This document shows positions 2 to 35,267 of a DNA stretch of 64,000 nt, one piece after another (the stretch's first letter is position 1; the number at the start of each line of letters is the position of its first letter). The position numbers and the translations under genes are program-made. Source of the DNA: Escherichia coli (GTDB lineage Bacteria > Pseudomonadota > Gammaproteobacteria > Enterobacterales > Enterobacteriaceae); NCBI RefSeq assembly GCF_003018115.1, contig NZ_CP027457.1. One strand, given 5' to 3'. Below the pieces are notes generated by a model. It was not told where the DNA came from. It searched no databases and saw nothing but the letters and a program-made list of their open reading frames with translations.

Positions 2-502
2 GTAGCCGGTAAAATGAGCAGCGGTGGAGCCGCCAATGGCAGTTACCACAGCAACGGGCTGGGCGGTCACATTGAAACCGGGATGCGATTTACCGATGGT
101 AACTGGAACCTGACGCCGTATGCATCGTTAACGGGGTTCACCGCTGATAACCCTGAATATCATTTATCCAATGGCATGGAATCGAAATCAGTCGATACCC
201 GCAGTATATATCGTGAACTGGGTGCAACGCTGAGTTACAACATGCGTCTGGGGAACGGTATGGAAGTTGAGCCGTGGCTGAAGGCGGCTGTGCGCAAAGA
301 ATTTGTCGATGATAACCGGGTGAAGGTGAATAATGACGGTAATTTCGTCAATGATTTGTCGGGCAGACGTGGAATATACCAGGCAGGTATTAAAGCCTCA
401 TTCAGCAGTACGTTAAGCGGGCATCTCGGGGTGGGGTATAGCAACGGTGCCGATGTGGAATCCCCGTGGAACGCGGTGGCTGGTGTGAACTGGTCGTTCT
501 GA
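2..502 (+). CDS. autotransporter beta-barrel translocator domain, C-terminal fragment (gene starts upstream of window)
   Basis: Open frame from window edge to stop at 500-502; beta-strand-like alternating pattern and terminal ...GVNWSF aromatic end typical of autotransporter C-termini; flanks the ssrA island as ypjA does in K-12-type genomes. Confidence 0.6.
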   Translation, partial: VAGKMSSGGAANGSYHSNGLGGHIETGMRFTDGNWNLTPYASLTGFTADNPEYHLSNGMESKSVDTRSIYRELGATLSYNMRLGNGMEVEPWLKAAVRKEFVDDNRVKVNNDGNFVNDLSGRRGIYQAGIKASFSSTLSGHLGVGYSNGADVESPWNAVAGVNWSF

Positions 503-513
503 CCATCAACGAA

Positions 514-535
514 AAAGCCCACATCTGTGGGCTTT
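514..535 (+). terminator. Rho-independent terminator hairpin
   Basis: Perfect inverted repeat AAAGCCCACA-tc-TGTGGGCTTT immediately after the stop codon. Confidence 0.6.
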
Positions 536-662
536 CATGTCGCCAGGAGCCGCGGCTCCTTTGCGTATCCTTTTTTGTCTCCTCACCGTCTGGTCGGTGT
601 CCTGCTGAGACTGCTAACTTCCTGTTTTTGTTGGTGTTGTCCTTACACCGTCCAATCATGAT

Positions 663-707
663 TGGTGGAGCTGGCGGGAGTTGAACCCGCGTCCGAAATT
701 CCTACAT
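663..707. repeat. attL: 45-bp duplicate of the ssrA 3' end (prophage core attachment repeat)
   Basis: TGGTGGAGCTGGCGGGAGTTGAACCCGCGTCCGAAATTCCTACAT identical to 34905..34949; identity ends at 708. Confidence 0.85.
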
Positions 708-792
708 ACCATTTTCACTATAATAAAAACATTAACTTGCGTTTAAAATCAGTAAGTTAGTATTATCTTGTGTTTGCTCGTTTTACTCATTT

Positions 793-1839
793 TTAATGCT
801 CTGTCGCCAATCTGTCGCCATTGTAGGTCAACGAAGGTTGAGCCTTCCCTTTGTTTGTTATAATTTCATCAAAGATAGCTGGATTATTATCTTTCAGTAA
901 TCTTGCTAGTATAATGATTTGCCCAGACGAGCCATCATCCTTGAATGAAAGGAAATTATCGGTAATATCAAGAATATCAATGGTAAATTTGAAGTAAGTT
1001 TCAATTGTATCGCCAAGCTCAATGCTGGACATGAAGTTAGTAACCATTTCATATCCATCAAAGTATAAAGTTGCATGTTCATTTAACTCCATTGGAGTTA
1101 GGCAAAGCATTCGATTAAGTTCGGATAAGTGTTTTTCTATTGAATGAAGAGATTGCATTTGACGGATTAAAACTTCGTCAAACTGAGAGCCATGATTAGA
1201 TGAATGTATCTTCTCTAGGTTTTTTAGTATATCAACCCAGTGATTATTCACTTCACGTATGTATTCTTTATCTGTATTTTTAGGCCGTCCCTTCTCTGGT
1301 GAGCTATTTATGAAAATATATCTATATAGATGTATTGGGTAGTTAATTTTATAACTTATCTCTTTAGTACCATAATGACGTTCGCGTTTAATGGTTTTGT
1401 TAGGTAAATTGGTGAAATAATCAGTAACGAACTTTAGATGGCTATAGTAGCTATCAGATAGATTCTTTTGCTTGGTTTCCTCAATTTGTCGGTTTGTTTG
1501 AACTGTGCGGTGTATGTTTGCTACGACAGCAACAAATGGTATGGACAAAGAAAGTAAGGCGATAGGAAGCTTGCTAATTGCAATGAAATTATTAAAGCCC
1601 TCACTATCAAATTGAGGGGAATGTCCAAGCCAGGAAAATATACCAAAGTATATCGCTGAAAATACAGGAATCCTAAGTGATTGTTTAAATAAGTATTGAC
1701 TTGTTAATGGCCTTTCATCCATGTTAAAGCCTTTTTTTGATACGCATAGATATAATTCAAGGCATATATATAAAAAATATATTATGATAAGTAAGTACGA
1801 TATCCATGGGTATTGTTGGATATAGTTATTAACAAACAC
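793..1839 (-). CDS. hypothetical membrane protein (about 3 N-terminal TM helices plus ~230-aa soluble domain); AT-rich cargo between int and attL
   Basis: 348-codon ORF with GTG start at 1837-1839 preceded by GGAG; hydrophobic segments WISYLLIIIYFLYICLELYL, IPVFSAIYFGIFSWLG, LPIALLSLSIPFVAVVANI; AT-rich relative to phage backbone; no recognisable catalytic motif. Confidence 0.55.
   Translation of the reverse strand: MFVNNYIQQYPWISYLLIIIYFLYICLELYLCVSKKGFNMDERPLTSQYLFKQSLRIPVFSAIYFGIFSWLGHSPQFDSEGFNNFIAISKLPIALLSLSIPFVAVVANIHRTVQTNRQIEETKQKNLSDSYYSHLKFVTDYFTNLPNKTIKRERHYGTKEISYKINYPIHLYRYIFINSSPEKGRPKNTDKEYIREVNNHWVDILKNLEKIHSSNHGSQFDEVLIRQMQSLHSIEKHLSELNRMLCLTPMELNEHATLYFDGYEMVTNFMSSIELGDTIETYFKFTIDILDITDNFLSFKDDGSSGQIIILARLLKDNNPAIFDEIITNKGKAQPSLTYNGDRLATEH
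801..821. repeat. tandem direct repeats CTGTCGCCA(A/T), candidate integrase arm-type (P') sites
   Basis: CTGTCGCCAAT CTGTCGCCAT about 95-115 bp from the core; same 10-mer occurs as an inverted pair at 34808..34846 near attR. Confidence 0.4.
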
Positions 1840-2868
1840 TTTCTAATTTTCTCCATCCAAGGTTAGCAAGAGGATTTTTGGTTACAGCATCTTCCAGATG
1901 GTCGGGAGCGAAGTGGGCGTAAATCATTGTCATTTTTATATCGACATGGCCCAGAATATCGCGCAGCACCAGTATGTTTCCGCCATTCATCATAAAGTGA
2001 CTTGCAAATGTATGTCGTAATACGTGTGTGCATTGCCCTTCTGGTAGCTCGATGCCAGCTCGTTTTACCGCACGTTCAAAAGCTTTCCTACAAGGTGTAA
2101 ATAATTTTCCCCTATTCTTAGGCAGTTCTTCATATAAATCCTTTGAAATAGGCACTGTTCGGTTTTTCTTTCCTTTAGTCTTGGTATAAGTGATACGGTA
2201 TTTTGACACCTGATGACTCTGCAGGTTTTCGGCTTCGCTCCAGCGTGCGCCGGTGGCCAAGCATATTTTTGCAATCATCAGCAGACTGGGGCTTTGAGAA
2301 TCAGCACAGGCATCCAGCAGACGTTTAATTTCTTCCGGGGTCAGGAACGCCAATTCACCCTCAGCAATTTTAAATGTTGGCAGCCCAGCAAGCGGGTTGG
2401 GGGCTGCCAGTGGCCCAGCTTTTTCAGTGTACCAAAAACAGATGATAGGTTGCGCTGTTCAAGATTTACCGTGCGGGGCTTAACGGGCGACATAAGCGTG
2501 CCATCTTCATTTCGTACTTCACCTTTTAACCGTGCTTCGCGGTATTTCGTAAACTCACCAGCTGTCAGTTCTGAGGCGATGGGATCGCCTAGACCATTAC
2601 AGATAATTCTAAGTTTCGCCATGAGGCGCTTGGGGTCTGCGAGTGTTTGACCATACAGGGAATACCACAGCTCAATTAATTCTGATAGATGTCGCCGATC
2701 TTCCTTTTCCCCTAGCCATGGTTTTTTGTTCACTTCTTCCATTGTGAAGCTTTCAAACGCAATGGCTTCGCCTTTGGTAGCAAATTGCTTACGCACGCGC
2801 TTACCATTGCGTCCATTGGGATAGCACTCACACAACCATTTTCCGTTCGGCTGTTTTCTGATGGTCAT
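1829..2868 (-). pseudogene. int: P2-family tyrosine integrase, interrupted by an apparent 1-nt frameshift in a G5 run (2399..2403)
   Basis: Two overlapping ORFs (2341..2868 N-terminal part, 1829..2353 catalytic part with ...HVLRHTFASHF...MIYAHF motifs); adding one G/C to the homopolymer gives a continuous ...HWQPPNPLAGLPTFKIAEGELAFLTPEEI... reading. Confidence 0.7.
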
Positions 2869-2871
2869 AAG

Positions 2872-3510
2872 TTAGAGGTTCTTGATTACTTTGACTGCAC
2901 GTCCTAGGACTTCCACATCATCTACAGAACATTCAAATGAAGTGTCATCTTGGTTAACTACTATTTTGTTTCCGGGTATGCGCGCAATTTTGACGATGCT
3001 TTTAACTCCGTCCATATCGACTAACCAGAAGCCATTACTGACTTGTTTAACAGACGTATCCACTACAAAGCTATCATTAGCTGTTTTAACAAATAAAGCG
3101 TTGGATGAGTCACCATCGAGCAGGCTGCTATCAAGAAGAATTTCATCACTTGGCTGCAGTTCGCCGTTCTTCAGTTCAACACGTTTGATGCTAGGAGCGA
3201 CGATCTTAGAAAGTGGTCTTACAGTGACAGGAGGTTCATTTTTGAGATTTGTTTCTTCGTTCTCACACGCATACATATCTCCTTGACCAGTAGCCAGCCA
3301 TAGAAGGGAAACTCCTGTTTCAAGGGCACATTGGATTACCCATTCGGCAGGAAAGCTATCCCTTAAGTATCTGTTAGCCATAGTGCTTTTTGATACTTCC
3401 AGATGTTCGCAGAGCTGCTGTCGTGAGCTGAAGTTGTAAGCCTTAATAAGCCTATTAATCGCATCGCGCCCACCACTATCATTCCCCGCCTTGATTAAAC
3501 TCATAATCAA
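2872..3510 (-). CDS. cI: phage 186 CI-type immunity repressor (N-terminal HTH, C-terminal oligomerisation domain)
   Basis: 212-aa ORF divergent from apl/cII; position next to int; HTH-like SRQQLCEHLEVSKSTMANRYL. Confidence 0.75.
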   Translation of the reverse strand: MIMSLIKAGNDSGGRDAINRLIKAYNFSSRQQLCEHLEVSKSTMANRYLRDSFPAEWVIQCALETGVSLLWLATGQGDMYACENEETNLKNEPPVTVRPLSKIVAPSIKRVELKNGELQPSDEILLDSSLLDGDSSNALFVKTANDSFVVDTSVKQVSNGFWLVDMDGVKSIVKIARIPGNKIVVNQDDTSFECSVDDVEVLGRAVKVIKNL

Positions 3511-3620
3511 ACCTCTTGATGTATATAAAAAGTGATCCTAATATCCATCCATGGTTTGAAAAGCAAAACCAAACCACATAAAACAAGATAAAACGAAACC
3601 AAACTAAGAGATACTGCACT
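3511..3620. promoter_or_regulatory. lysis-lysogeny switch region with face-to-face promoters/operators between cI and apl; candidate rightward promoter TTGAAA(3556-3561)-17 bp-TAAAAC(3579-3584)
   Basis: AT-rich 110-bp divergent intergenic region between repressor and excisionase/Cox-like gene. Confidence 0.35.
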
Positions 3621-3863
3621 ATGAGTACTGATATTTCAATTCGTGTACCAAAAGAGATGGCTACGCCTGCAGAGTTCGCGGAATGGGAAGGTATCTCCCG
3701 CGGCTCCGTGTATCAAAAAATTCACCATGGTCAGCTTGCTAAATACATGGTCAAGAAAGAAAAAAACAAAGGCCGCGTAAGCCTGCGTTATTTAATGTAC
3801 AAAACCGATCAGGTCCGTGAATCCCTCGGTCATTCCAACTTCCGCGTCATTGTTGGTAAGTAA
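3621..3863 (+). CDS. apl: Apl/Cox-like excisionase and transcriptional regulator
   Basis: 80-aa ORF first in the early rightward operon, opposite cI; HTH-like EFAEWEGISRGSVYQKIHHGQL. Confidence 0.7.
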   Translation: MSTDISIRVPKEMATPAEFAEWEGISRGSVYQKIHHGQLAKYMVKKEKNKGRVSLRYLMYKTDQVRESLGHSNFRVIVGK

Positions 3864-5446: not shown

Positions 5447-6300
5447 GCACCATCCTGAAATGGGCGGGTAATAAAACCGCCGTTATGTCCGAACTGAAAA
5501 AATACCTTCCTGCTGGCCCGCGACTGGTTGAACCTTTCGCGGGTTCCTGTGCAGTGATGATGGAGACGGATTACCCAAGCTATCTGGTAGCGGATATTAA
5601 TCCTGATTTAATCAACCTCTATAAAAAGGTTGCTGCTGATTGTGAGGTGTTTATATCTCGCGCCAGAATTTTGTTTGAGGAAGCAAACAGTGAGCTGGCT
5701 TATTACAACATAAGGCAGGAGTTTAATTACTCAACTGAAATTACTGATTTCATGAAATCGGTATATTTCCTGTATCTCAATCGTCATGGTTACCGTGGGT
5801 TATGTCGCTATAACAAGAGCGGGCATTTCAACATTCCCTACGGTAATTATAAAAAACCGTATTTCCCTGAAAAAGAAATTCGCGCATTTGCAGAGAAAGC
5901 CCAGCGGGCAACGTTTATCTGCGCCAGCTTTGATGAAACGCTGGCGATGTTGAAGGCGGGGGATGTGGTGTATTGCGATCCGCCGTATGACGGTACGTTT
6001 TCCGGCTATCACACTGATGGCTTCACTGAGGATGACCAGTATCACCTGGCATCCGTTCTTGAACATCGATCATCTGAAGGTCATCCGGTCATTGTTTCTA
6101 ACAGTGACACATCCCTGATTCGTTCGCTGTATCGCAATTTCACTCACCACTACATCAAGGCAAAACGCAGCATCGGCGTGTCGGCTGGCGAGAGTAAATC
6201 TGCAACAGAAATCATTGCTGTTTCCGGGGCGCGCTGCTGGGTGGGATTTGATCCTTCGCGTGGCGTGGATAGTTCTGCTGTGTACGAGGTGCGTGTATGA
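5443..6300 (+). CDS. dam: DNA adenine methyltransferase (Dam-like, probable GATC N6-adenine MTase), orphan
   Basis: Motif [10 protein letters not shown] and motif IV DPPY; strong similarity pattern to E. coli Dam ([24 protein letters not shown]); ATG 5443 with GGAGGTG RBS. Confidence 0.85.
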
Positions 6301-8711
6301 GTCATGACGATATGAGCAACTCTAGCGGCTTTAACGAGGCCGCAGCAGCATTTTCATGGAACGGCCCGAAAAAGGCCATTAACCCTTATCTGGACCCGGC
6401 GGAAGTTGCGCCGGAGTCTGCACTTTCAAACATGATCACTCTGTACGCTGCCGATAACGAGCAGGAACAGCTGCGCCGCGATGCACTGAGTGAGCAGGTC
6501 TGGGAGCGTTATTTCTTTAATGAATCCCGTGATCCTGTCCAGCGCGAAATGGAGCAGGATAAGCTCATTAGCCGCGCAAAGCTTGCGCATGAGCAGCAGC
6601 GTTTTAACCCGGACATGGTCATTCTGGCAGATGTCAGCGCCCAGCCTACCCACATCAGCAAGCCGCTGATGCAACGTATCGAATACTTCAGTAGCCTGGG
6701 CAGGCCAAAGGCTTATTCCTGCTATTTGCGTGAGACGATTAAGCCATGTCTGGAGCGACTGGATTGTGTACGCGACAGTCAGCTATCCGCTTCTTTCCGT
6801 TTTATGGCAAGCCATCAAGGGCTTGAGGGCCTGCTGATCCTGCCTGAAATGAGTCAGGATCAGGTAAAACGCCTGTCCACCCTGGTAGCAGCGCATATGA
6901 GCATGTGTCTTGAGGTCGCTTGTGGTGATTTGTATGCCACCGATGACGTTAAGCCAGAAGAAATCCGCAAGGCATGGGAAAAGGTGGCAGCGGAAACCCT
7001 GCGTCTGGATGTTATCCCGCCTGCGTTTGAGAAACTTCGTCGGAAAAGAAACCGCCGCAAACCAGTGCCCTATGAACTCATACCGGGTTCGATGGCACGT
7101 ATGCTTTGCGCCGACTGGTGGTATCGAAAATTGTGGAAGATGCGTTGCGAATGGCGGGAAGAGCAGTTGCGTGCTGTCTGTCTGGTCAGCAAAAAAGCAT
7201 CTCCCTATGTCAGCTATGAAGCAGTGACGCATAAACGTGAGCAGCGCCGCAAGTCGCTGGAGTTTTTCCGTTCTCATGAACTGGTGAACGAAGACGGAGA
7301 CACGCTGGATATGGAAGATGTGGTAAACGCCAGCAGCAGCAACCCGGCACATCGCCGAAATGAGATGATGGCCTGCGTTAAAGGTCTGGAGCTTATCGCG
7401 GAAATGCGTGGTGACTGCGCCGTTTTCTACACTATCACCTGTCCGTCACGTTTCCATTCCACGCTAAATAACGGCAGGCCCAACCCGACCTGGACAAATG
7501 CGACTGTAAGACAAAGCAGTGATTATCTGGTCGGCATGTTTGCTGCATTTCGTAAGGCGATGCACAAAGCCGGGTTGCGTTGGTATGGCGTGCGGGTGGC
7601 TGAGCCGCACCATGACGGTACTGTGCACTGGCATCTTATGTGCTTCATGCGTAAAAAAGACCGCCGCGCCATCACTGCATTACTGCGTAAGTTTGCCATC
7701 CGTGAAGACCGCGAGGAGCTGGGCAATAACACTGGGCCGCGCTTTAAGTCTGAGCTGATTAATCCGCGCAAAGGAACGCCGACAAGCTACATCGCGAAAT
7801 ATATCAGTAAGAACATTGACGGGCGTGGTCTGGCTGGCGAGATCAGCAAGGAAACGGGTAAATCTCTGCGTGATAACGCTGAATACGTGAATGCCTGGGC
7901 GTCTCTGCATCGTGTTCAGCAATTCCGCTTCTTTGGTATTCCGGGGCGTCAGACTTACCGTGAACTGCGATTGCTGGCTGGTCAGGCGGCAAGGCTACAG
8001 GGTGACAAAAAAGCAGGTGCGCCGGTACTGGATAACCCACGTCTTGATGCCATCCTGGCTGCTGCTGATGCTGGCTGTTTTGCGACCTACATCATGAAGC
8101 AGGGCGGCGTGCTGGTTCCCCGCAAATATCACCTTATCAGAACAGCTTATGAAATTAACGAAGAGCCGACCGCCTATGGCGATCACGGTATTCGTATTTA
8201 TGGCATCTGGTCACCCATTGCAGAGGGCAAGATCTGCACTCATGCAGTGAAGTGGAAAATGGTTAGTAAGGCCGTTGACGTTCAGGAGGCGGCAGCCGAC
8301 CAGGGCGCTTGCGCCCCTTGGACTCGTGGCAATAACTGTCCCCTTGCTGAAAATTTGAACCAACAAGGGAAAGACAAATCAGCTGATGGGGACTCCAGAA
8401 CGGATATTACCCGTATGAATGACAAGGAGTTGCACGATTACCTGCACAGTATGAGCAAAAAAGAGCGCCGGGAACTGGCTGCAAGGTTACGCCAGGTGAA
8501 ACCGAAACGGCGTAAAGACTACAAACAGCGAATTACAGACCATCAGCGACAGCAGCTCGTCTATGAACTGAAGTCCAGGGGATTTGATGGCAGCGAGAAA
8601 GAAGTCGATTTGCTCCTTCGCGGCGGCAGTATTCCGTCAGGAGCAGGCCTGCGTATCTTCTATCGGAACCAGCGTCTGAAGGAAGATGATAAGTGGCGGA
8701 ACCTGTATTAA
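6297..8711 (+). CDS. A: replication initiation endonuclease (P2 gpA-like rolling-circle initiator)
   Basis: 804-aa ORF at the end of the early operon; contains the gpA-family AKYISKN region and HWHLMCFM motif. Confidence 0.8.
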
Positions 8712-10181: not shown

Positions 10182-10203
10182 AAACCACTGCATAAAGCGG
10201 GCA

Positions 10204-10222
10204 GGCGTGGCGGGGATACGAG
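10204..10222. other. candidate cos cohesive-end site GGCGTGGCGGGGATACGAG
   Basis: First 13 nt match the P2/186 cohesive-end sequence as recalled (GGCG(A/T)GGCGGGGAAAGCA...); lies between the right-end tum region and Q as in P2/186. Confidence 0.4.
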
Positions 10223-10356
10223 CGCGCTCTGATATGAAAATCTGAACAAAAAATTACAAAATGGTATCTTTTTGTTGCTATCATCATTTTTGATGGTAAC
10301 TTAACCTTTTCAGTTTCTATATTATAAAATTCTATCCAGAAGAAGGAATTTGTTTC

Positions 10357-12138
10357 ATGGCTGAACTATTACCGCAAACAACTTCTATACAAACTATTTA
10401 TTCATGGTTTACTGAAGGTAAGATATTTGTTAATAGACGTTATCAACGAAAATTAGTTTGGACTGCAATAGAGAAACAAAAATTAATTGAATCCATTCAA
10501 AAAAAATATCCAATTCCTGCAGTTCTTCTCGCGGAAAGGGAAAATGATCCTGGCACATATGAAATAATTGATGGCCTACAAAGATTACATGCAATAATGT
10601 CTTTCATCGAAACAGGATATGAATCACTTGATGGAAAACGTTTTAATCTGGACGCTTTTCCCACAGCGAAAAATCGAGCGGATGAAGGTAAGTTTGTTGC
10701 AGTGAAAGCTGATAATCTTTTAAGTCAGCGTGAGGTTACTCAGTTATTGGATTATTCTCTTGCAATGTCCATTATGCGTAATGCGACTGAGAACGAAATA
10801 AATGATGTTTTTGATAGAATTAATACATACGGGCATAGACTTAGTGATCAAGAAAGGCGCCAGGCTGGTATACAAAATAAATTTTCAAATATGGTTAGGG
10901 ATATTGCCTGTTCTATCAGGGGGGATGTATCTGACGACATATTGCTTTTAGAGCAAATGCCGTCTATTAGCATTGATTTGCCACTAACTAAACATGGTTA
11001 CCAAATTCAGTCGGAAGAAGTATTTTGGGTAAAACATGGGATCTTACGTTCAACAGACCTTCGTGACAGTATGGATGAGCAATGCATTGCAGATATAGCA
11101 GCTTGTATTGTTGGAGGTAAGTTAATAGATCGTTCCAAAGATGCGCTTGATCAGATTTATAATAATGAAGATGAAGAGTATAGTCGTATTAGCTCTGCTA
11201 TTAATGTTTATGGTGAAGGAAAATTTGCAGAAGAGTTTAAATTCTGCATCCAGGAAATAACAAAAGTATGTAATAGTGACGGTGAAATTAAACTCAGGGA
11301 TTTAATCTTTACTAAACGTACTACAAATGCTTTCCCAGCCATATTTGCTGTGTTATTTATTGCTTTTCATGAATTACTCATTAAAGAAAATAAGAAGATT
11401 AATAATTATAAAGGTGTAAAAGACAATCTTAATAATATAGTCACTCGACTAGATACTAAAAGATCTGCTACTGGTGGGGAAGAGAGAAGAAAGAATATTA
11501 ATTCTATCATAGGCTTGATTAAAGATAACTTTATTGATAGCGCCGATAGCAGTCATATCTATAATTCTCACAATACGGTGGATATTGAGGATATTTTACG
11601 AAGATCTGAAATAGAGCTTGCAAATTATGAACTGAAACAGGGTTTGTTGATGTTAGGCGGAGAGCGAACTATTGATGATGGCATTCATGAGAAAATATTC
11701 TCCACAATTTGTGCTATTGCTAACATCGGTAAAGGTAACAAGAACGGTGTAGTTGGTAAGTTATTGCTTGGTGTAACAGATAAACCAAGTGATACAAGTA
11801 GAGTAAAAGAGCTTGATGATATAGATGCACATGTAGTTGGTGAGAGAAGTGTTGTTGGTGTTAAAAGAGAAGCTATTAAACTCGGCATATCAATGGAAGA
11901 ATATTATAGACGTTTTTGCGATGAGTTGAAAAAATCTGCTTTGAGTGAGCCTCTTAAATCACAAGTGGTGAGTTTGATTGACTATAATGACTTTTATGGT
12001 TATGGAGTTATAGTTATTACAATTCCACTTCTAGCATCTTATTCTAGTTATGATGGGGATATTTATTATCGTGCTGGCGATAATACCGTAAAAGCAACAG
12101 TTATCGAAGCAGCAGATATTGCAACACGTTTTAAATGA
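10357..12138 (+). CDS. DUF262 (ParB/GmrS-like NTPase/nuclease-fold) N-domain fused to Schlafen/AlbA_2-like C-domain; candidate anti-phage defence protein
   Basis: 593 aa; N-terminal RRYQRKLVW and IIDGLQRLHA motifs (DUF262 signature); C-terminal ELANYELKQ...ICAIANIGKGNKNGVVGKLLLGVTD...IYYRAGDNT resembles AlbA_2/Schlafen core; no H-N-H/DUF1524 motif; AT-rich; between cos and portal gene. Confidence 0.7.
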   Translation: MAELLPQTTSIQTIYSWFTEGKIFVNRRYQRKLVWTAIEKQKLIESIQKKYPIPAVLLAERENDPGTYEIIDGLQRLHAIMSFIETGYESLDGKRFNLDAFPTAKNRADEGKFVAVKADNLLSQREVTQLLDYSLAMSIMRNATENEINDVFDRINTYGHRLSDQERRQAGIQNKFSNMVRDIACSIRGDVSDDILLLEQMPSISIDLPLTKHGYQIQSEEVFWVKHGILRSTDLRDSMDEQCIADIAACIVGGKLIDRSKDALDQIYNNEDEEYSRISSAINVYGEGKFAEEFKFCIQEITKVCNSDGEIKLRDLIFTKRTTNAFPAIFAVLFIAFHELLIKENKKINNYKGVKDNLNNIVTRLDTKRSATGGEERRKNINSIIGLIKDNFIDSADSSHIYNSHNTVDIEDILRRSEIELANYELKQGLLMLGGERTIDDGIHEKIFSTICAIANIGKGNKNGVVGKLLLGVTDKPSDTSRVKELDDIDAHVVGERSVVGVKREAIKLGISMEEYYRRFCDELKKSALSEPLKSQVVSLIDYNDFYGYGVIVITIPLLASYSSYDGDIYYRAGDNTVKATVIEAADIATRFK

Positions 12139-12178: not shown

Positions 12179-13207
12179 CTACAAAATATATTTATTAAAT
12201 GTAATTATATTTTCATCCAGCCAACAATTAAGCGCTTGCATCAATTTTTGCAAAGGTAAAAGCTCATTCCGCACAAATACCTTACTAGCTTTCTCTACAT
12301 CCCCAAACCCCCCGACATTGCTAGGCATAATCCCCATCATTTGCGGCGGTACGCGGTGCGCCGCCATCATGTCGTCCCGGCTCACGTTCTTGATATTCAG
12401 AAACTCATCCTTCGCCGCGACTTCTGACAGAGGAATGATCTGAAGCCCATCCTTTTTGCCGTTAGGCGAGTACATAAACAGGTTGCGGAAGTTACCCGGT
12501 CCTTTGGCGCTTTTCATTGCGTTGCGGAGGTTGTTCACATCCTCCTGGTTTTGCGCGGCATCGGTCATGTACATGATGAAGCCTGCATGACTGCCGTTAA
12601 TGTAATACTTCCGGCGGAACAGCGTGGCGGACTCGTTGAGCAGGGCTGACGGAATGGCAGAAAGATAACCGGGCAGGCCGTAGATCTCCTGGTTGATATC
12701 CGGTTCCATCAGGTGAAAAATGCTGCCTTTCGTGAACTGATACGGTTGCGTTGTCATGCCGTATTGCACAAACCAGTAGGTATCCAGGTCTAATCCACGT
12801 CGGGTGTATTTTGCCAGGGCAGGCTCAAGGGCGATAACTTCACCGAATCGGTTCGTGCGTTTCTCCAGGTAGGCGTTACCAAATACCAGATAGTCCTGCA
12901 CAAAACGCGAAAAAGCCTGCTGGCTGAGCAGCGGATGAGGGATATAGGTACTGGTCAGAATGTTGCACTTTACTGCAATCGGGGAACTGTGATGCACGGC
13001 GGCGCGGAAGGTGCGCGCCAGTCCGTCAAAGCTGACGGGCGGCTCATACCAGCGGTCCATCTGTACGCATTCCACATAGTCCAGCAGTTCACGGCGGTCC
13101 AGAACAGGAACGGGATCGCCGAAGCTGAATGCTTCGGCTGTAGTTTGACTTTTAAGCTGGATCTGTTTCGTCGCCGCAGCTCGGTTCTTCTTACTCTTTC
13201 CCATCAA
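12179..13207 (-). CDS. Q: portal protein (P2 gpQ-like)
   Basis: 342 aa, P2 Q size and position, translationally coupled to P. Confidence 0.85.
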   Translation of the reverse strand: MMGKSKKNRAAATKQIQLKSQTTAEAFSFGDPVPVLDRRELLDYVECVQMDRWYEPPVSFDGLARTFRAAVHHSSPIAVKCNILTSTYIPHPLLSQQAFSRFVQDYLVFGNAYLEKRTNRFGEVIALEPALAKYTRRGLDLDTYWFVQYGMTTQPYQFTKGSIFHLMEPDINQEIYGLPGYLSAIPSALLNESATLFRRKYYINGSHAGFIMYMTDAAQNQEDVNNLRNAMKSAKGPGNFRNLFMYSPNGKKDGLQIIPLSEVAAKDEFLNIKNVSRDDMMAAHRVPPQMMGIMPSNVGGFGDVEKASKVFVRNELLPLQKLMQALNCWLDENIITFNKYIL

Positions 13208-14970
13208 AAAATCTCCACAATATTGCTGGTATTGGCGGATTCGCCCTGCAGCGGTTCGTTAAACAGTGCGTGCATCGTTGCCCATGCCAGATCGGCGTGG
13301 CTGGCTTCTTCGCTGCGGCTGGCTTCATAGGTCGGGCGGTTGCCACTGGCTGTGGTGGCGCGACGGATTGCCATAAATGACTGCGCAATGTCGGTATGTC
13401 CGGCGTCAAACTCCAGACGGCGGTGGCTGATAATGTCGTAGGCCTTGAGTACCAGGGCGTTTTTAACGTTGGGGTTGTAGACAAACTCCCGGACGGCAGG
13501 AAAGAACGCTTTCACGTTCTCGTAAACCCCGTGACCAACGCCGGTTGAGTCGATGCCGATGTAGGTCACGTTGTACTGCTCGGTCAGTTTTTTGATTGCG
13601 TCAGCCTGGGCGCGGAAGTCCATCCCGCGCCACTGGTGACGCTCAAGAATGCGAAACTTGCCGCCCGGCACGGTTGGCGGTGCCACCACCACGCACCCGG
13701 CGCTGTCACCGTTCTGCGTGCCTTTCGCCGGGTCGTATCCGATCCAGACTTCGCGCCAGCCAAACGGGCGCAGGGCCAGTGCATGAAAGTCGGTCCAGAC
13801 TTCCCAACTGTCCACCATGCACGCCTGCAGCTCGCTGAGCGGAAACACGGACGCGAGATCGTCCACAAACTCGCACATCAGTAGGTTCTGGTATTCGTCC
13901 GGGCTGTACTCCATGCGCAACTGATCGAGGTCGAACAGGTTACAGCCGCCGCGCACCGCATCTTCCACAGTGACTATCTGGCGGTACTGTCCGTCAGGGC
14001 AGAGCAGGCCGCGCGCAAGATTGCTGTGGGTCAGGTCAATATCCACCTTGTCCGCTTTGGCGCGGCCCCGGTTAAACAGCGCACCGGACCAGAACGGATA
14101 GGCACTGTGGGTCAGGCTGGACGGCGTGGAAAAGTAGGTTTGTCGCCATTTCTTGTGAATGGCCATCCCGGAGGCAACTTTGCGCAGTTCCTGGAATTTC
14201 GGTATCCAGAAATATTCATCAAGGTACAGGTTGCCGTGGTAGCTCTGCGCCGTACGGGCGTTGGTGCCGAGAAAGTACAATGCTGCGCCATTAGGTAGCA
14301 CCATAGGATCGCCTTTCAGCTCCACCTCAACTTCTTTGGCAAAGTCGATGATGTACTGCTTAAAGACGTGCGCCTGTGCCTTACTGGCAGAAAGGAAAAT
14401 CTGGTTACGTCCGGTAAGCAGGGCGTCAATCAGGGCTTCACGGGCAAAGTAAAAGGTCGCGCCGATCTGGCGTGACTTCAGCAGGTTGCGGATGCGGTTG
14501 GTTTTTCCTGCTTCCCACCAGTGGCGCTGGTAGTTGAACATGGAGGAATAAAAGATTTCTTCCAGCTTCTCAATCTGTTCATCGGTGAAAACGTTCTTTT
14601 CCGGCTGACGGCGCGGGCCTTTGTTGCGGTTGGCGACGTTAGGGTTTAAGTCGGCTTCGTTGCCGCCATTGTTAAACTTGCCGATCCGCGCATGGCGCTC
14701 CGACTGGCGCGCCAGCAGGTCAATCTCTTTGAAATCTTTCCCTTCTTTGTGCTCCTTCATAATGAGCTGGCAGTAGCGTGCGGCGGTGGTGAGCTGCATC
14801 TGATCCAGCGGCCCATAGTCACCCCACTTGTCGCGTTTTTTCCAGCTGTGAACGGTTGCAACTTTCTCGCCCAGCATTTCAGCAATGCGGGCTACGCGGT
14901 ATCCCTGAAAGTACAGCAGCATGGCCTGCCGACGGGGATCGAGATCTGCGGGTGTCAGTGTGGTGTTCAT
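13204..14970 (-). CDS. P: terminase large (ATPase) subunit (P2 gpP-like)
   Basis: 588 aa; size and synteny with P2 gpP. Confidence 0.85.
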   Translation of the reverse strand: MNTTLTPADLDPRRQAMLLYFQGYRVARIAEMLGEKVATVHSWKKRDKWGDYGPLDQMQLTTAARYCQLIMKEHKEGKDFKEIDLLARQSERHARIGKFNNGGNEADLNPNVANRNKGPRRQPEKNVFTDEQIEKLEEIFYSSMFNYQRHWWEAGKTNRIRNLLKSRQIGATFYFAREALIDALLTGRNQIFLSASKAQAHVFKQYIIDFAKEVEVELKGDPMVLPNGAALYFLGTNARTAQSYHGNLYLDEYFWIPKFQELRKVASGMAIHKKWRQTYFSTPSSLTHSAYPFWSGALFNRGRAKADKVDIDLTHSNLARGLLCPDGQYRQIVTVEDAVRGGCNLFDLDQLRMEYSPDEYQNLLMCEFVDDLASVFPLSELQACMVDSWEVWTDFHALALRPFGWREVWIGYDPAKGTQNGDSAGCVVVAPPTVPGGKFRILERHQWRGMDFRAQADAIKKLTEQYNVTYIGIDSTGVGHGVYENVKAFFPAVREFVYNPNVKNALVLKAYDIISHRRLEFDAGHTDIAQSFMAIRRATTASGNRPTYEASRSEEASHADLAWATMHALFNEPLQGESANTSNIVEIF

Positions 14971-34904: not shown

Positions 34905-35267
34905 TGGTGGAGCTGGCGGGAGTTGAACCCGCGTCCGAAATTCCTACATCCTCGGTACTACATGCTTAGTCAGTCTTTACATTCGCTTGCCAGCTGCGGA
35001 CGGACACGCCACTAACAAACTAGCCTGATTAAGTTTTAACGCTTCAACCCCTGGCAGGGCTTCCACGCGATCTCTTTTGGGTTTGACCTCTCTTGATCCC
35101 CGTCCTAAGAGCGGAGGCTAGGGAGAGAGGGCTCTAAGCAGGTTATTAAGCTGCTAAAGCGTAGTTTTCGTCGTTTGCGACTATTTTTTGCGGCTTTTTA
35201 CGAGGCCAACCGCCCCTCGGCATGCACCTTGGGTTTCGCAAATCCCGTCGAATCCAGAATCAGCCCC
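34905..35267 (-). ncRNA. ssrA: tmRNA (SsrA), complete; 3' 45 nt form attR
   Basis: Reverse complement matches the E. coli tmRNA from GGGGCTGATTCTGGATTCGACGGG to ...GGTTCAACTCCCGCCAGCTCCACCA, including the tag-encoding region. Confidence 0.95.

Follow-up and report, generated by a model that had tools for sequence, protein, structure and literature searches.

What is the AT-rich open reading frame (ORF) that stands between the integrase gene and the attachment site (att) of an Escherichia coli prophage, and what may its product do for the phage or for the lysogen? We considered this question for a window of 64,000 nucleotides (by the window we mean the whole stretch of DNA analysed; contig NZ_CP027457.1 of assembly GCF_003018115.1), where the frame, called here the cargo ORF, takes positions 793..1839 of the minus strand, at the left end of a prophage of about 34 kb, of the 186/Fels-2 type (Peduoviridae), integrated at the transfer-messenger RNA (tmRNA) gene ssrA. 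An earlier note on the same DNA, made from the letters alone, had suggested a membrane-anchored superinfection-exclusion or abortive-infection effector. According to our analysis the gene and its status of a moron are solid and the functional guess of that note was a reasonable one; it is not a demonstrated novelty. The product belongs to a large and unannotated family, which makes it a worthwhile candidate for experiment, and it is built of a nearly frozen membrane module joined to a variable domain that is predicted to be cytoplasmic. The forms and parts of the gene discussed below are the following.

793..1839, minus strand: long form of the cargo ORF, 348 codons from a GTG, with the stop codon at 793-795 (ORF list and sequence; starts of homologues).
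793..1722, minus strand: short form of the cargo ORF, 309 residues from an ATG at codon 40, with two transmembrane (TM) helices (RefSeq orthologue WP_000344474.1, 930 nt).
1741..1803, minus strand: TM1, an optional, weakly constrained first helix, residues 13-33 (hydropathy to 2.35; helix 12-34 in the model; dN/dS 0.64; 1.1 bits/column).
1402..1722, minus strand: conserved membrane core, residues 40-146 (conservation in 94 members; dN/dS 0.025; helix 79-143 in the model).
796..1401, minus strand: variable C-terminal alpha/beta domain, residues 147-348, predicted cytoplasmic (pLDDT mostly 80-93; 0.75-1.08 bits/column; dN/dS 0.24).

Judged from its sequence relatives, the cargo ORF is a real gene, because homologues are found from 98% down to about 20% identity and the ratio of nonsynonymous to synonymous substitution rates (dN/dS, taken here and in the list against a 90%-identical allele) is 0.19 over the whole protein. 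That such a frame could have arisen by chance in AT-rich junk DNA might be suggested by its composition and by the lack of any database annotation, and it is refuted by hundreds of homologous clusters, by the very low dN/dS of the core, by a confident AlphaFold model and by a full-length match to PHROG 17460 at E = 2e-155 (residues 4-332 against positions 2-343 of a profile of 343, 'unknown function').

The composition and the position of the gene came out as the earlier note had described them. Its GC content is 0.337, versus 0.464 for int, 0.427 for cI and 0.520 for the prophage body (3600-34900), and GC at third codon positions is 0.31, versus 0.41 in int. It lies between int (1829..2868), whose stop its GTG start overlaps by 11 nt, and the copy of the ssrA 3' end at 662-707, for which the name 'attL' used by that note is a convention only.

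The same place in related phages, which we refer to as the int-att slot, is variably occupied. Fels-2 is the closest named phage, with 87% identity across int-cI-cII, and its slot is empty, the int gene ending 141 bp from attP. Phage 186 holds there Orf69, a protein of 83 residues, while Salmonella phage RE-2010 (L011 204-1409) and Escherichia phage Cartapus (L012 1267-2472) hold a 401-residue protein, labelled in the Cartapus record as 'putative RES protein, NAD+ binding domain'. In E. coli prophages with flanks 90-93% like the window the slot contains GapS1 (two prophages), a hypothetical protein of 222 residues (strain VCSW8, L004 1794-2462), or a protein of 339 (WP_148119614) or 352 residues (WP_077696579). 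The last two types are divergent members of the cargo family itself, the 339-residue type by sequence search at 38% identity and the 352-residue one by an hhalign probability of 100% at 28% identity. GAPS1 has been validated as an anti-phage system (bioRxiv 10.1101/2023.03.28.534373). The 401- and 222-residue proteins received no PADLOC assignment and are candidate defence or toxin genes.

The cargo gene is, thus, an accessory (moron) gene of a Fels-2/186-like prophage, and the corresponding proposal of the earlier note is well supported by a slot that is empty or variably filled in related phages and by a GC content departing from that of the backbone; the comparison across related prophages, which the note had recommended, returned just this picture of an empty slot, Orf69, GapS1, the 401- and 222-residue proteins and divergent family members. 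Lysogeny can do without the gene, since close relatives either have nothing in the slot or have an unrelated gene there. A core phage function, such as an integration or excision factor or a lysis or assembly protein, could be seen behind the coupling of the start to the int stop in several lineages; it is largely refuted, and we regard it as very improbable, because Fels-2, in spite of its so similar int-cI-cII segment, has no gene in the slot at all, phage 186 has only its short Orf69, other occupants are unrelated, and the gene is AT-rich against the phage backbone.

The family to which the protein belongs is considerably larger than a quick search indicates. A word-indexed search returned 29 clusters, all 'hypothetical' (a second one, run with the 94-sequence profile on a capped number of candidates, brought hardly any more), and an exhaustive profile search 828 clusters at 50% identity with E <= 1e-3, including 127 with E <= 1e-30, most of the proteins being 320-380 residues long. 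Named members come from Escherichia, Salmonella, Klebsiella, Citrobacter, Enterobacter, Cronobacter, Proteus, Providencia, Morganella, Duffyella and Erwinia, and structure matches add Serratia, Yersinia, Rahnella, Dickeya, Pseudomonas and Achromobacter. The allele of the window is rare (13 of 5,426 complete E. coli genomes), and a 98% identical copy is present in a Klebsiella prophage record. In that record (OK490418.1, Klebsiella phage Kp4865-2, 11511-15116), which bears the label of a Klebsiella pneumoniae phage, cargo, int, cI and cII are all 98-99% identical to the window, which suggests a very recent transfer between the genera or a labelling issue. The sole match of a plasmid search was a mis-filed prophage fragment. 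Searches of Pfam, NCBIfam and PADLOC with the query and about 150 relatives gave sporadic weak matches to the TM region and no family assignment, and a structure search found nothing resembling the protein among solved structures. Neither the family nor the int-att slot is described in the 2022 P2/P4 hotspot paper of Rousset and colleagues, in the 2026 survey of P2-like viruses or in the DefensePredictor supplements, and a literature search for WP_000344474 and phrog_17460 yields no account of the family.

Kyte-Doolittle analysis places three hydrophobic segments at residues ~13-33, 54-72 and 85-108. The AlphaFold model, built with 20 homologues, has a mean predicted local distance difference test score (pLDDT) of 78 and a predicted template modelling score (pTM) of 0.62, and it shows helices at 12-34 and 49-72, a continuous helix at 79-143 and then an alpha/beta domain, over much of which pLDDT is 85-93. 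The reading of the earlier note, about three N-terminal TM helices, stands for the long form by hydropathy and by the model, but the 309-residue RefSeq form has two. The charges of the loops (none in residues 1-12, +5/-2 in 34-60, +1/-2 in 72-92 and +5/-4 after TM3) fit, by the positive-inside rule, a predicted inner-membrane protein with its N-terminus outside, its C-terminus inside and its large domain in the cytoplasm.

Conservation is concentrated in the membrane core, where residues 40-146 carry 2.56 bits/column, versus 0.75-1.1 elsewhere. In the predicted topology the chain of this core goes from an L-x-x-Q-x-LF motif on the cytoplasmic side through TM2 to a short loop in the periplasm (W-x-G-H-x-P-x-F...GF), and from there through TM3 to a long juxtamembrane helix. 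In an alignment of 94 diverse members Q48, F85, H110 and Q114 are invariant, and L45, F51, P58, W70, G81, P92, L96, R111, T112, T115, Q118, I119, K125, N126, D129, H134, K136 and Y172 are kept in at least 90%. The juxtamembrane helix bears a polar stripe (N108, H110, R111, T112, Q114, T115, Q118, K125, N126, D129, H134, K136), and on helix 108-140 the polar residues that are conserved cluster on one side, spanning some 160 degrees. The earlier note saw no recognisable motif in the protein, which is right in so far as Pfam and NCBIfam give no match, but the family possesses a strong motif of its own, N-I-H-R-T-x-Q-T-x-x-Q-I ... K-N-x-x-D-x-Y-Y-S-H-x-K. The C-terminal domain is the variable part, and some distant members (P0067, P0084, P0111, P0125) share the N-terminal module alone and continue into a different C-terminus. 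We propose that this domain serves for specificity or for sensing.

The start of the protein deserves a separate consideration. M40, the first residue of the short form, is invariant in the alignment of 20 homologues, an AAGG lies 7 nt upstream of its ATG, and many family members begin at the equivalent of codon 40. The long three-TM form is probably real as well, because none of the 20 aligned homologues interrupts the reading frame of the N-terminal extension, which is hydrophobic in each of them and keeps Y24 and E28 without exception. Among relatives located directly after int, six start with an ATG, of which five overlap the int stop by 4-11 nt and the sixth abuts it. The extension is weakly constrained, the dN/dS value of 0.64 being that of residues 2-39, and in the allele of E. 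coli OkiPb01677 (L021) a 2-nt deletion in a (TA)n run, at nt 76 of the long ORF, leaves the short form alone intact. This short run lies within the TM1-coding extension, at about 1755-1775 of the window, and the loss of one TA unit has frameshifted the long form in OkiPb01677; it could be a simple decay or a slippage-prone switch between three-TM and two-TM isoforms. Both products, long and short, may exist, and the two-TM core is the indispensable part of the protein.

Further evidence comes from the surroundings of eleven relatives, ten of them database homologues and one the 352-residue slot protein of E. coli KE58. Seven of the eleven lie directly after a P2-type int. A Providencia member (P0160) has ogr/portal on one side and gpA on the other within a P2-like prophage, which is the location of the A-Q hotspot, shown in P2 to hold anti-phage systems (Rousset et al. 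2022, PMC9122126). A Morganella member (P0078) is in a smpB/ssrA island beside a reverse transcriptase, a Proteus one (P0084) at a prophage end, adjoining tail genes and near genes for NADAR, PRTase-CE and DUF4747, and of those located after an int one (P0174) is near FRG-domain and nSTAND NTPase genes. Outside of tailed phages, the family reaches tailless PM2-like prophages (Vinavirales) of Vibrio cyclitrophicus, where a 358-residue homologue (hhalign probability 97.8% over TM3 and the conserved helix) follows immediately after a LexA-like repressor at the prophage border, a place known in PM2-like prophages as an accessory and defence hotspot (PMC11630473). By this profile match the same cargo family is carried in two viral realms, by tailed Peduoviridae and by tailless Vinavirales. 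The Vibrio homologues are located as follows.

13481-14557 of 10N.286.54.F4_PE001 (L014): Vibrio homologue.
12774-13841 of 10N.239.312.A01_PE001 (L015): Vibrio homologue.

The neighbours of the cargo ORF in the window, which matter for its expression and for the limits of the prophage, are these.

1829..2868, minus strand: int, tyrosine integrase of the P2/186 type, split in two ORFs (2341..2868 and 1829..2353), its stop overlapping the cargo start.
2872..3510, minus strand: CI repressor of the 186 type, at the head of the lysogenic operon (cI, int, cargo) (ORF list, RefSeq orthologous locus, operon annotation of phage 186).
662..707, minus strand: att core, a displaced copy of the last ~45 nt of ssrA (run identical to the tmRNA 3' end in pairwise alignment).
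34905..35267, minus strand: ssrA, full copy of the tmRNA gene, on the right side of the prophage.

According to the curated record of phage 186, the lysogenic operon has the promoters pL (maintenance) and pE (establishment), carries cI, int and Orf69 in this order and has its predicted terminator on the far side of attP. A scan of 450-3700 in the window detected no terminator on the minus strand, and promoter-like sites, searched for by consensus, were no commoner than in shuffled sequence. The simplest reading is that the cargo is the last gene of the lysogenic operon, co-transcribed with cI and int and made in lysogens; it draws on the phage 186 annotation, on the absence of a terminator from the scanned region and on the overlap of start and stop with int. 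The expression is probably low and translationally coupled to int.

The window is a segment of the E. coli chromosome comprising the end of ypjA (14..502, plus strand), the prophage, ssrA, smpB and an rrn operon at 59.5 kb. The att core forms the left end of the prophage and lies 86 nt downstream of the cargo stop codon, and from this end the gene order is int, cI, apl, cII, fil and dam, followed by the replication gene A and the late genes. Alignment of int with an intact 346-residue gene from E. coli CFSAN051542 places a 1-nt deletion between 2407 and 2406, CACTGG[T]CAGCCCCC, and the split gene may mean either that the prophage is grounded, being unable to excise, or that there is a sequencing error beside a C5 run. 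CFSAN051542 is the E. coli genome that matches best, and its prophage breaks off soon after dam, with a baseplate gene that is incomplete in RefSeq; the cI-int-cargo module survives within this remnant. Elsewhere in the prophage of the window, inside an AT-rich stretch at about 10200-12100, an ORF of 593 residues (10357..12138, plus strand, GC ~0.30-0.38) lies between gene A (6297..8711) and the portal/terminase genes, which is the classical P2 A-Q (tin/old) hotspot, and PADLOC matches it to NsnA (8e-31) and PD-T4-2_A (2e-18). By this position and these matches it is probably a second, recognisable defence cargo of the same prophage.

From the information discussed above we propose, at somewhat less than an even chance, that the cargo protein acts alone as a phage-exclusion factor, in the manner of abortive infection, damaging the membrane in response to a signal sensed by its variable domain. 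The trigger would be a component of the infecting phage, recognised by the variable cytoplasmic domain, the signal would travel via the conserved helix to the membrane hairpin, and the hairpin would oligomerise or open, so that membrane integrity or the proton-motive force would collapse and the infection would stop. Such a sensor-effector arrangement is suggested by the frozen membrane module, the polar linking helix, the stand-alone character of the gene and its residence in lysogeny operons and defence hotspots, and the defensive role by the slot common to a validated defence gene, by one relative in the P2 hotspot and by the lysogenic operon read by analogy with phage 186. A number of points weigh against it. 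Profiles of known defence systems do not match the family in a consistent way, the 2TM match being confined to the query; 0 of 130 family members match putAbiC, and hhalign gives AbiC probabilities of 1-6%. The int frameshift may weaken translational coupling in the window. In many 186-like lineages the gene is fixed behind int, which may hint at a benefit for the phage other than defence, and hotspots carry non-defence cargo too. Moreover, the conserved hairpin and periplasmic loop could equally fit the binding of a conserved host membrane protein, which would suit a block of DNA entry or a role outside of defence.

This last point leads to superinfection exclusion (Sie) in the strict sense, where the hairpin and the periplasmic loop would block entry of the incoming genome via a host inner-membrane translocation component, and the host would survive. 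The predicted inner-membrane location and the likely expression in lysogens are in line with it, the best-conserved part of the protein is exactly TM2, the periplasmic loop and TM3, which fits a contact with a host or phage ejection component, and there is some resemblance to the classic Sie genes. We find it unlikely nonetheless, since about 200 variable residues are predicted to be cytoplasmic, from where an action on entry from outside is not obvious, the polar stripe extends 35 residues into the cytoplasm, and PHROGs and PADLOC reveal no homology to known Sie proteins. It would also be conceivable that the protein works for lysogenic conversion or prophage maintenance, as a sensor of stress or of the envelope, a modulator of host physiology or an input to the lysis-lysogeny decision; the lack of a link to known defence families speaks for this, and the tie to cI-int in many lineages and to a repressor in the Vibrio PM2-like prophages would suit a regulator of lysogeny. 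A slot that in close relatives is empty or holds unrelated genes, GapS1 among them, fits such a role poorly, one member resides in the A-Q defence hotspot away from cI-int, and a variable and sometimes swapped C-terminal domain agrees better with an arms race than with housekeeping signalling, so that we consider this explanation rather improbable.

It is possible, though we would sooner doubt it, that the cargo gene of the window is a founding example of an unrecognised large family of single-protein, membrane-anchored anti-phage sensors, which would combine a nearly invariant killing or blocking module with a diversifying recognition domain, a lysogenic-operon placement in two realms and possible three-TM and two-TM isoforms, and that the int-att junction is a third defence hotspot of the P2 family. 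Under this reading the family would span more than 800 clusters at 50% identity, in Enterobacterales, Vibrio and Pseudomonas. If it is true, a widespread defence or exclusion family absent from Pfam, NCBIfam and PADLOC 2023 would be added to those known, the int-att end of the 186/Fels-2 lysogenic operon would become a cargo hotspot that can be mined by synteny like the P2 A-Q and P4 psu-int sites, and one cargo family would prove to have been recruited by tailed as well as tailless temperate phages. The contrast of a frozen membrane module and a variable cytoplasmic domain would offer a convenient system for the study of effector restraint and release within a single polypeptide. Should the function fail to be confirmed, the gene would be one more hypothetical prophage moron.

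Among known systems, the abortive infection protein AbiC calls for the most careful comparison. Four structural relatives in AlphaFold-DB (A0AAW6XE66, A0AB35PWB9, A0AAX2BKH9, A0AA97BW60), at 21-27% identity, are named 'Phage abortive infection protein', and lactococcal AbiC is a protein of about 340 residues with N-terminal TM helices (PMC13064643, AbiC/P group). The cargo gene resembles the AbiC/AbiP group as a single, AT-rich gene of about 340 residues on a mobile element, with TM helices, a long helix and a soluble domain lacking an assignable fold. As a reference we took the AbiC-like gene of Lactococcus lactis plasmid p275A, confirmed by PADLOC AbiC (4e-133) and by Pfam putAbiC (1.6e-7), and built from it an AbiC family alignment for hhalign. 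A weak collinear alignment of the 2TM regions can be drawn, I-S-K-L-P...S-I-P...H-R-T-I-Q-T in the family against l-S-r-l-e...i-g-P...r-n-T-l-k-i-q in AbiC; this similarity reaches from the TM hairpin into the first turns of the helix behind it and stays at or below 13 bits (best local hmmsearch 12.8 bits). In the direct comparisons, PF16872 (putAbiC) does not match the query at E <= 10 nor any of the 20 + 94 + 36 scanned members at E <= 0.1, PADLOC AbiC matches neither the query nor 29 relatives, and hhalign returns probabilities of 3.7%, 1.3% and 5.7%. The C-terminal domain of AbiC is all-alpha, with a YFKIFHRILK...GILRTQLS signature, whereas that of the cargo protein is alpha/beta with other motifs, and the Foldseek top-50 lists of the two models have zero targets in common. 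On account of these profile results, the unlike C-terminal domains and the separate Foldseek targets we rejected membership in AbiC; a very remote common origin of AbiC and the membrane module of the family is possible.

The cargo protein also shares with the 2TM/SLATT effectors of the cyclic oligonucleotide-based anti-phage signalling system (CBASS), Pycsar and Thoeris a membrane hairpin of two helices, a short outer loop and a cytoplasmic domain, a plan in which a conserved membrane effector has a sensor attached to it. The PADLOC CBASS '2TM' profile PDLC00691 matches the query weakly, at E = 2e-4, and is not seen for 29 relatives; PycTM (E ~3e-3) and Pfam SLATT_6 (E ~0.04) each match two relatives, and most relatives give nothing. 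In distinction from the effectors, the profile matches are sporadic and not reproducible across the family, and by Pfam the C-terminal domain is neither a SAVED nor a cyclic nucleotide monophosphate (cNMP)-binding fold. No cyclase, SMODS, SLOG or TIR partner is present in the window or in six homologous loci, where the neighbours are int, cI and att. The 2TM, PycTM and SLATT_6 matches, sporadic and limited to the TM region, were not accepted as evidence for membership among these effectors, to which the hairpin may or may not be related.

Classic Sie genes, such as P22 sieA, T4 imm and lactococcal sie2009, encode small membrane proteins in lysogeny modules. The products SieA, Imm and Sie2009 are phage- or prophage-encoded membrane proteins expressed from the lysogeny module, as the cargo protein probably is too; PHROGs and PADLOC give no sequence relationship, and the cargo protein is much larger, with its predicted cytoplasmic domain of about 200 residues. 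Orf69 of phage 186 occupies the same position, after int and before attP in the lysogenic operon, but it has 83 residues, and tblastn of the cargo protein against the phage collection gave no phage 186 match. The cargo of the P2-like hotspots (old, tin; PMC9122126) differs in that the slot of the window is the int-att junction in the lysogenic operon and not A-Q, and the protein is unrelated to the validated cargo; it is similar in being an AT-rich, variable insertion at a single locus of a Peduoviridae prophage, in a slot common to the validated GapS1, and one member of the family is found in the A-Q hotspot itself.

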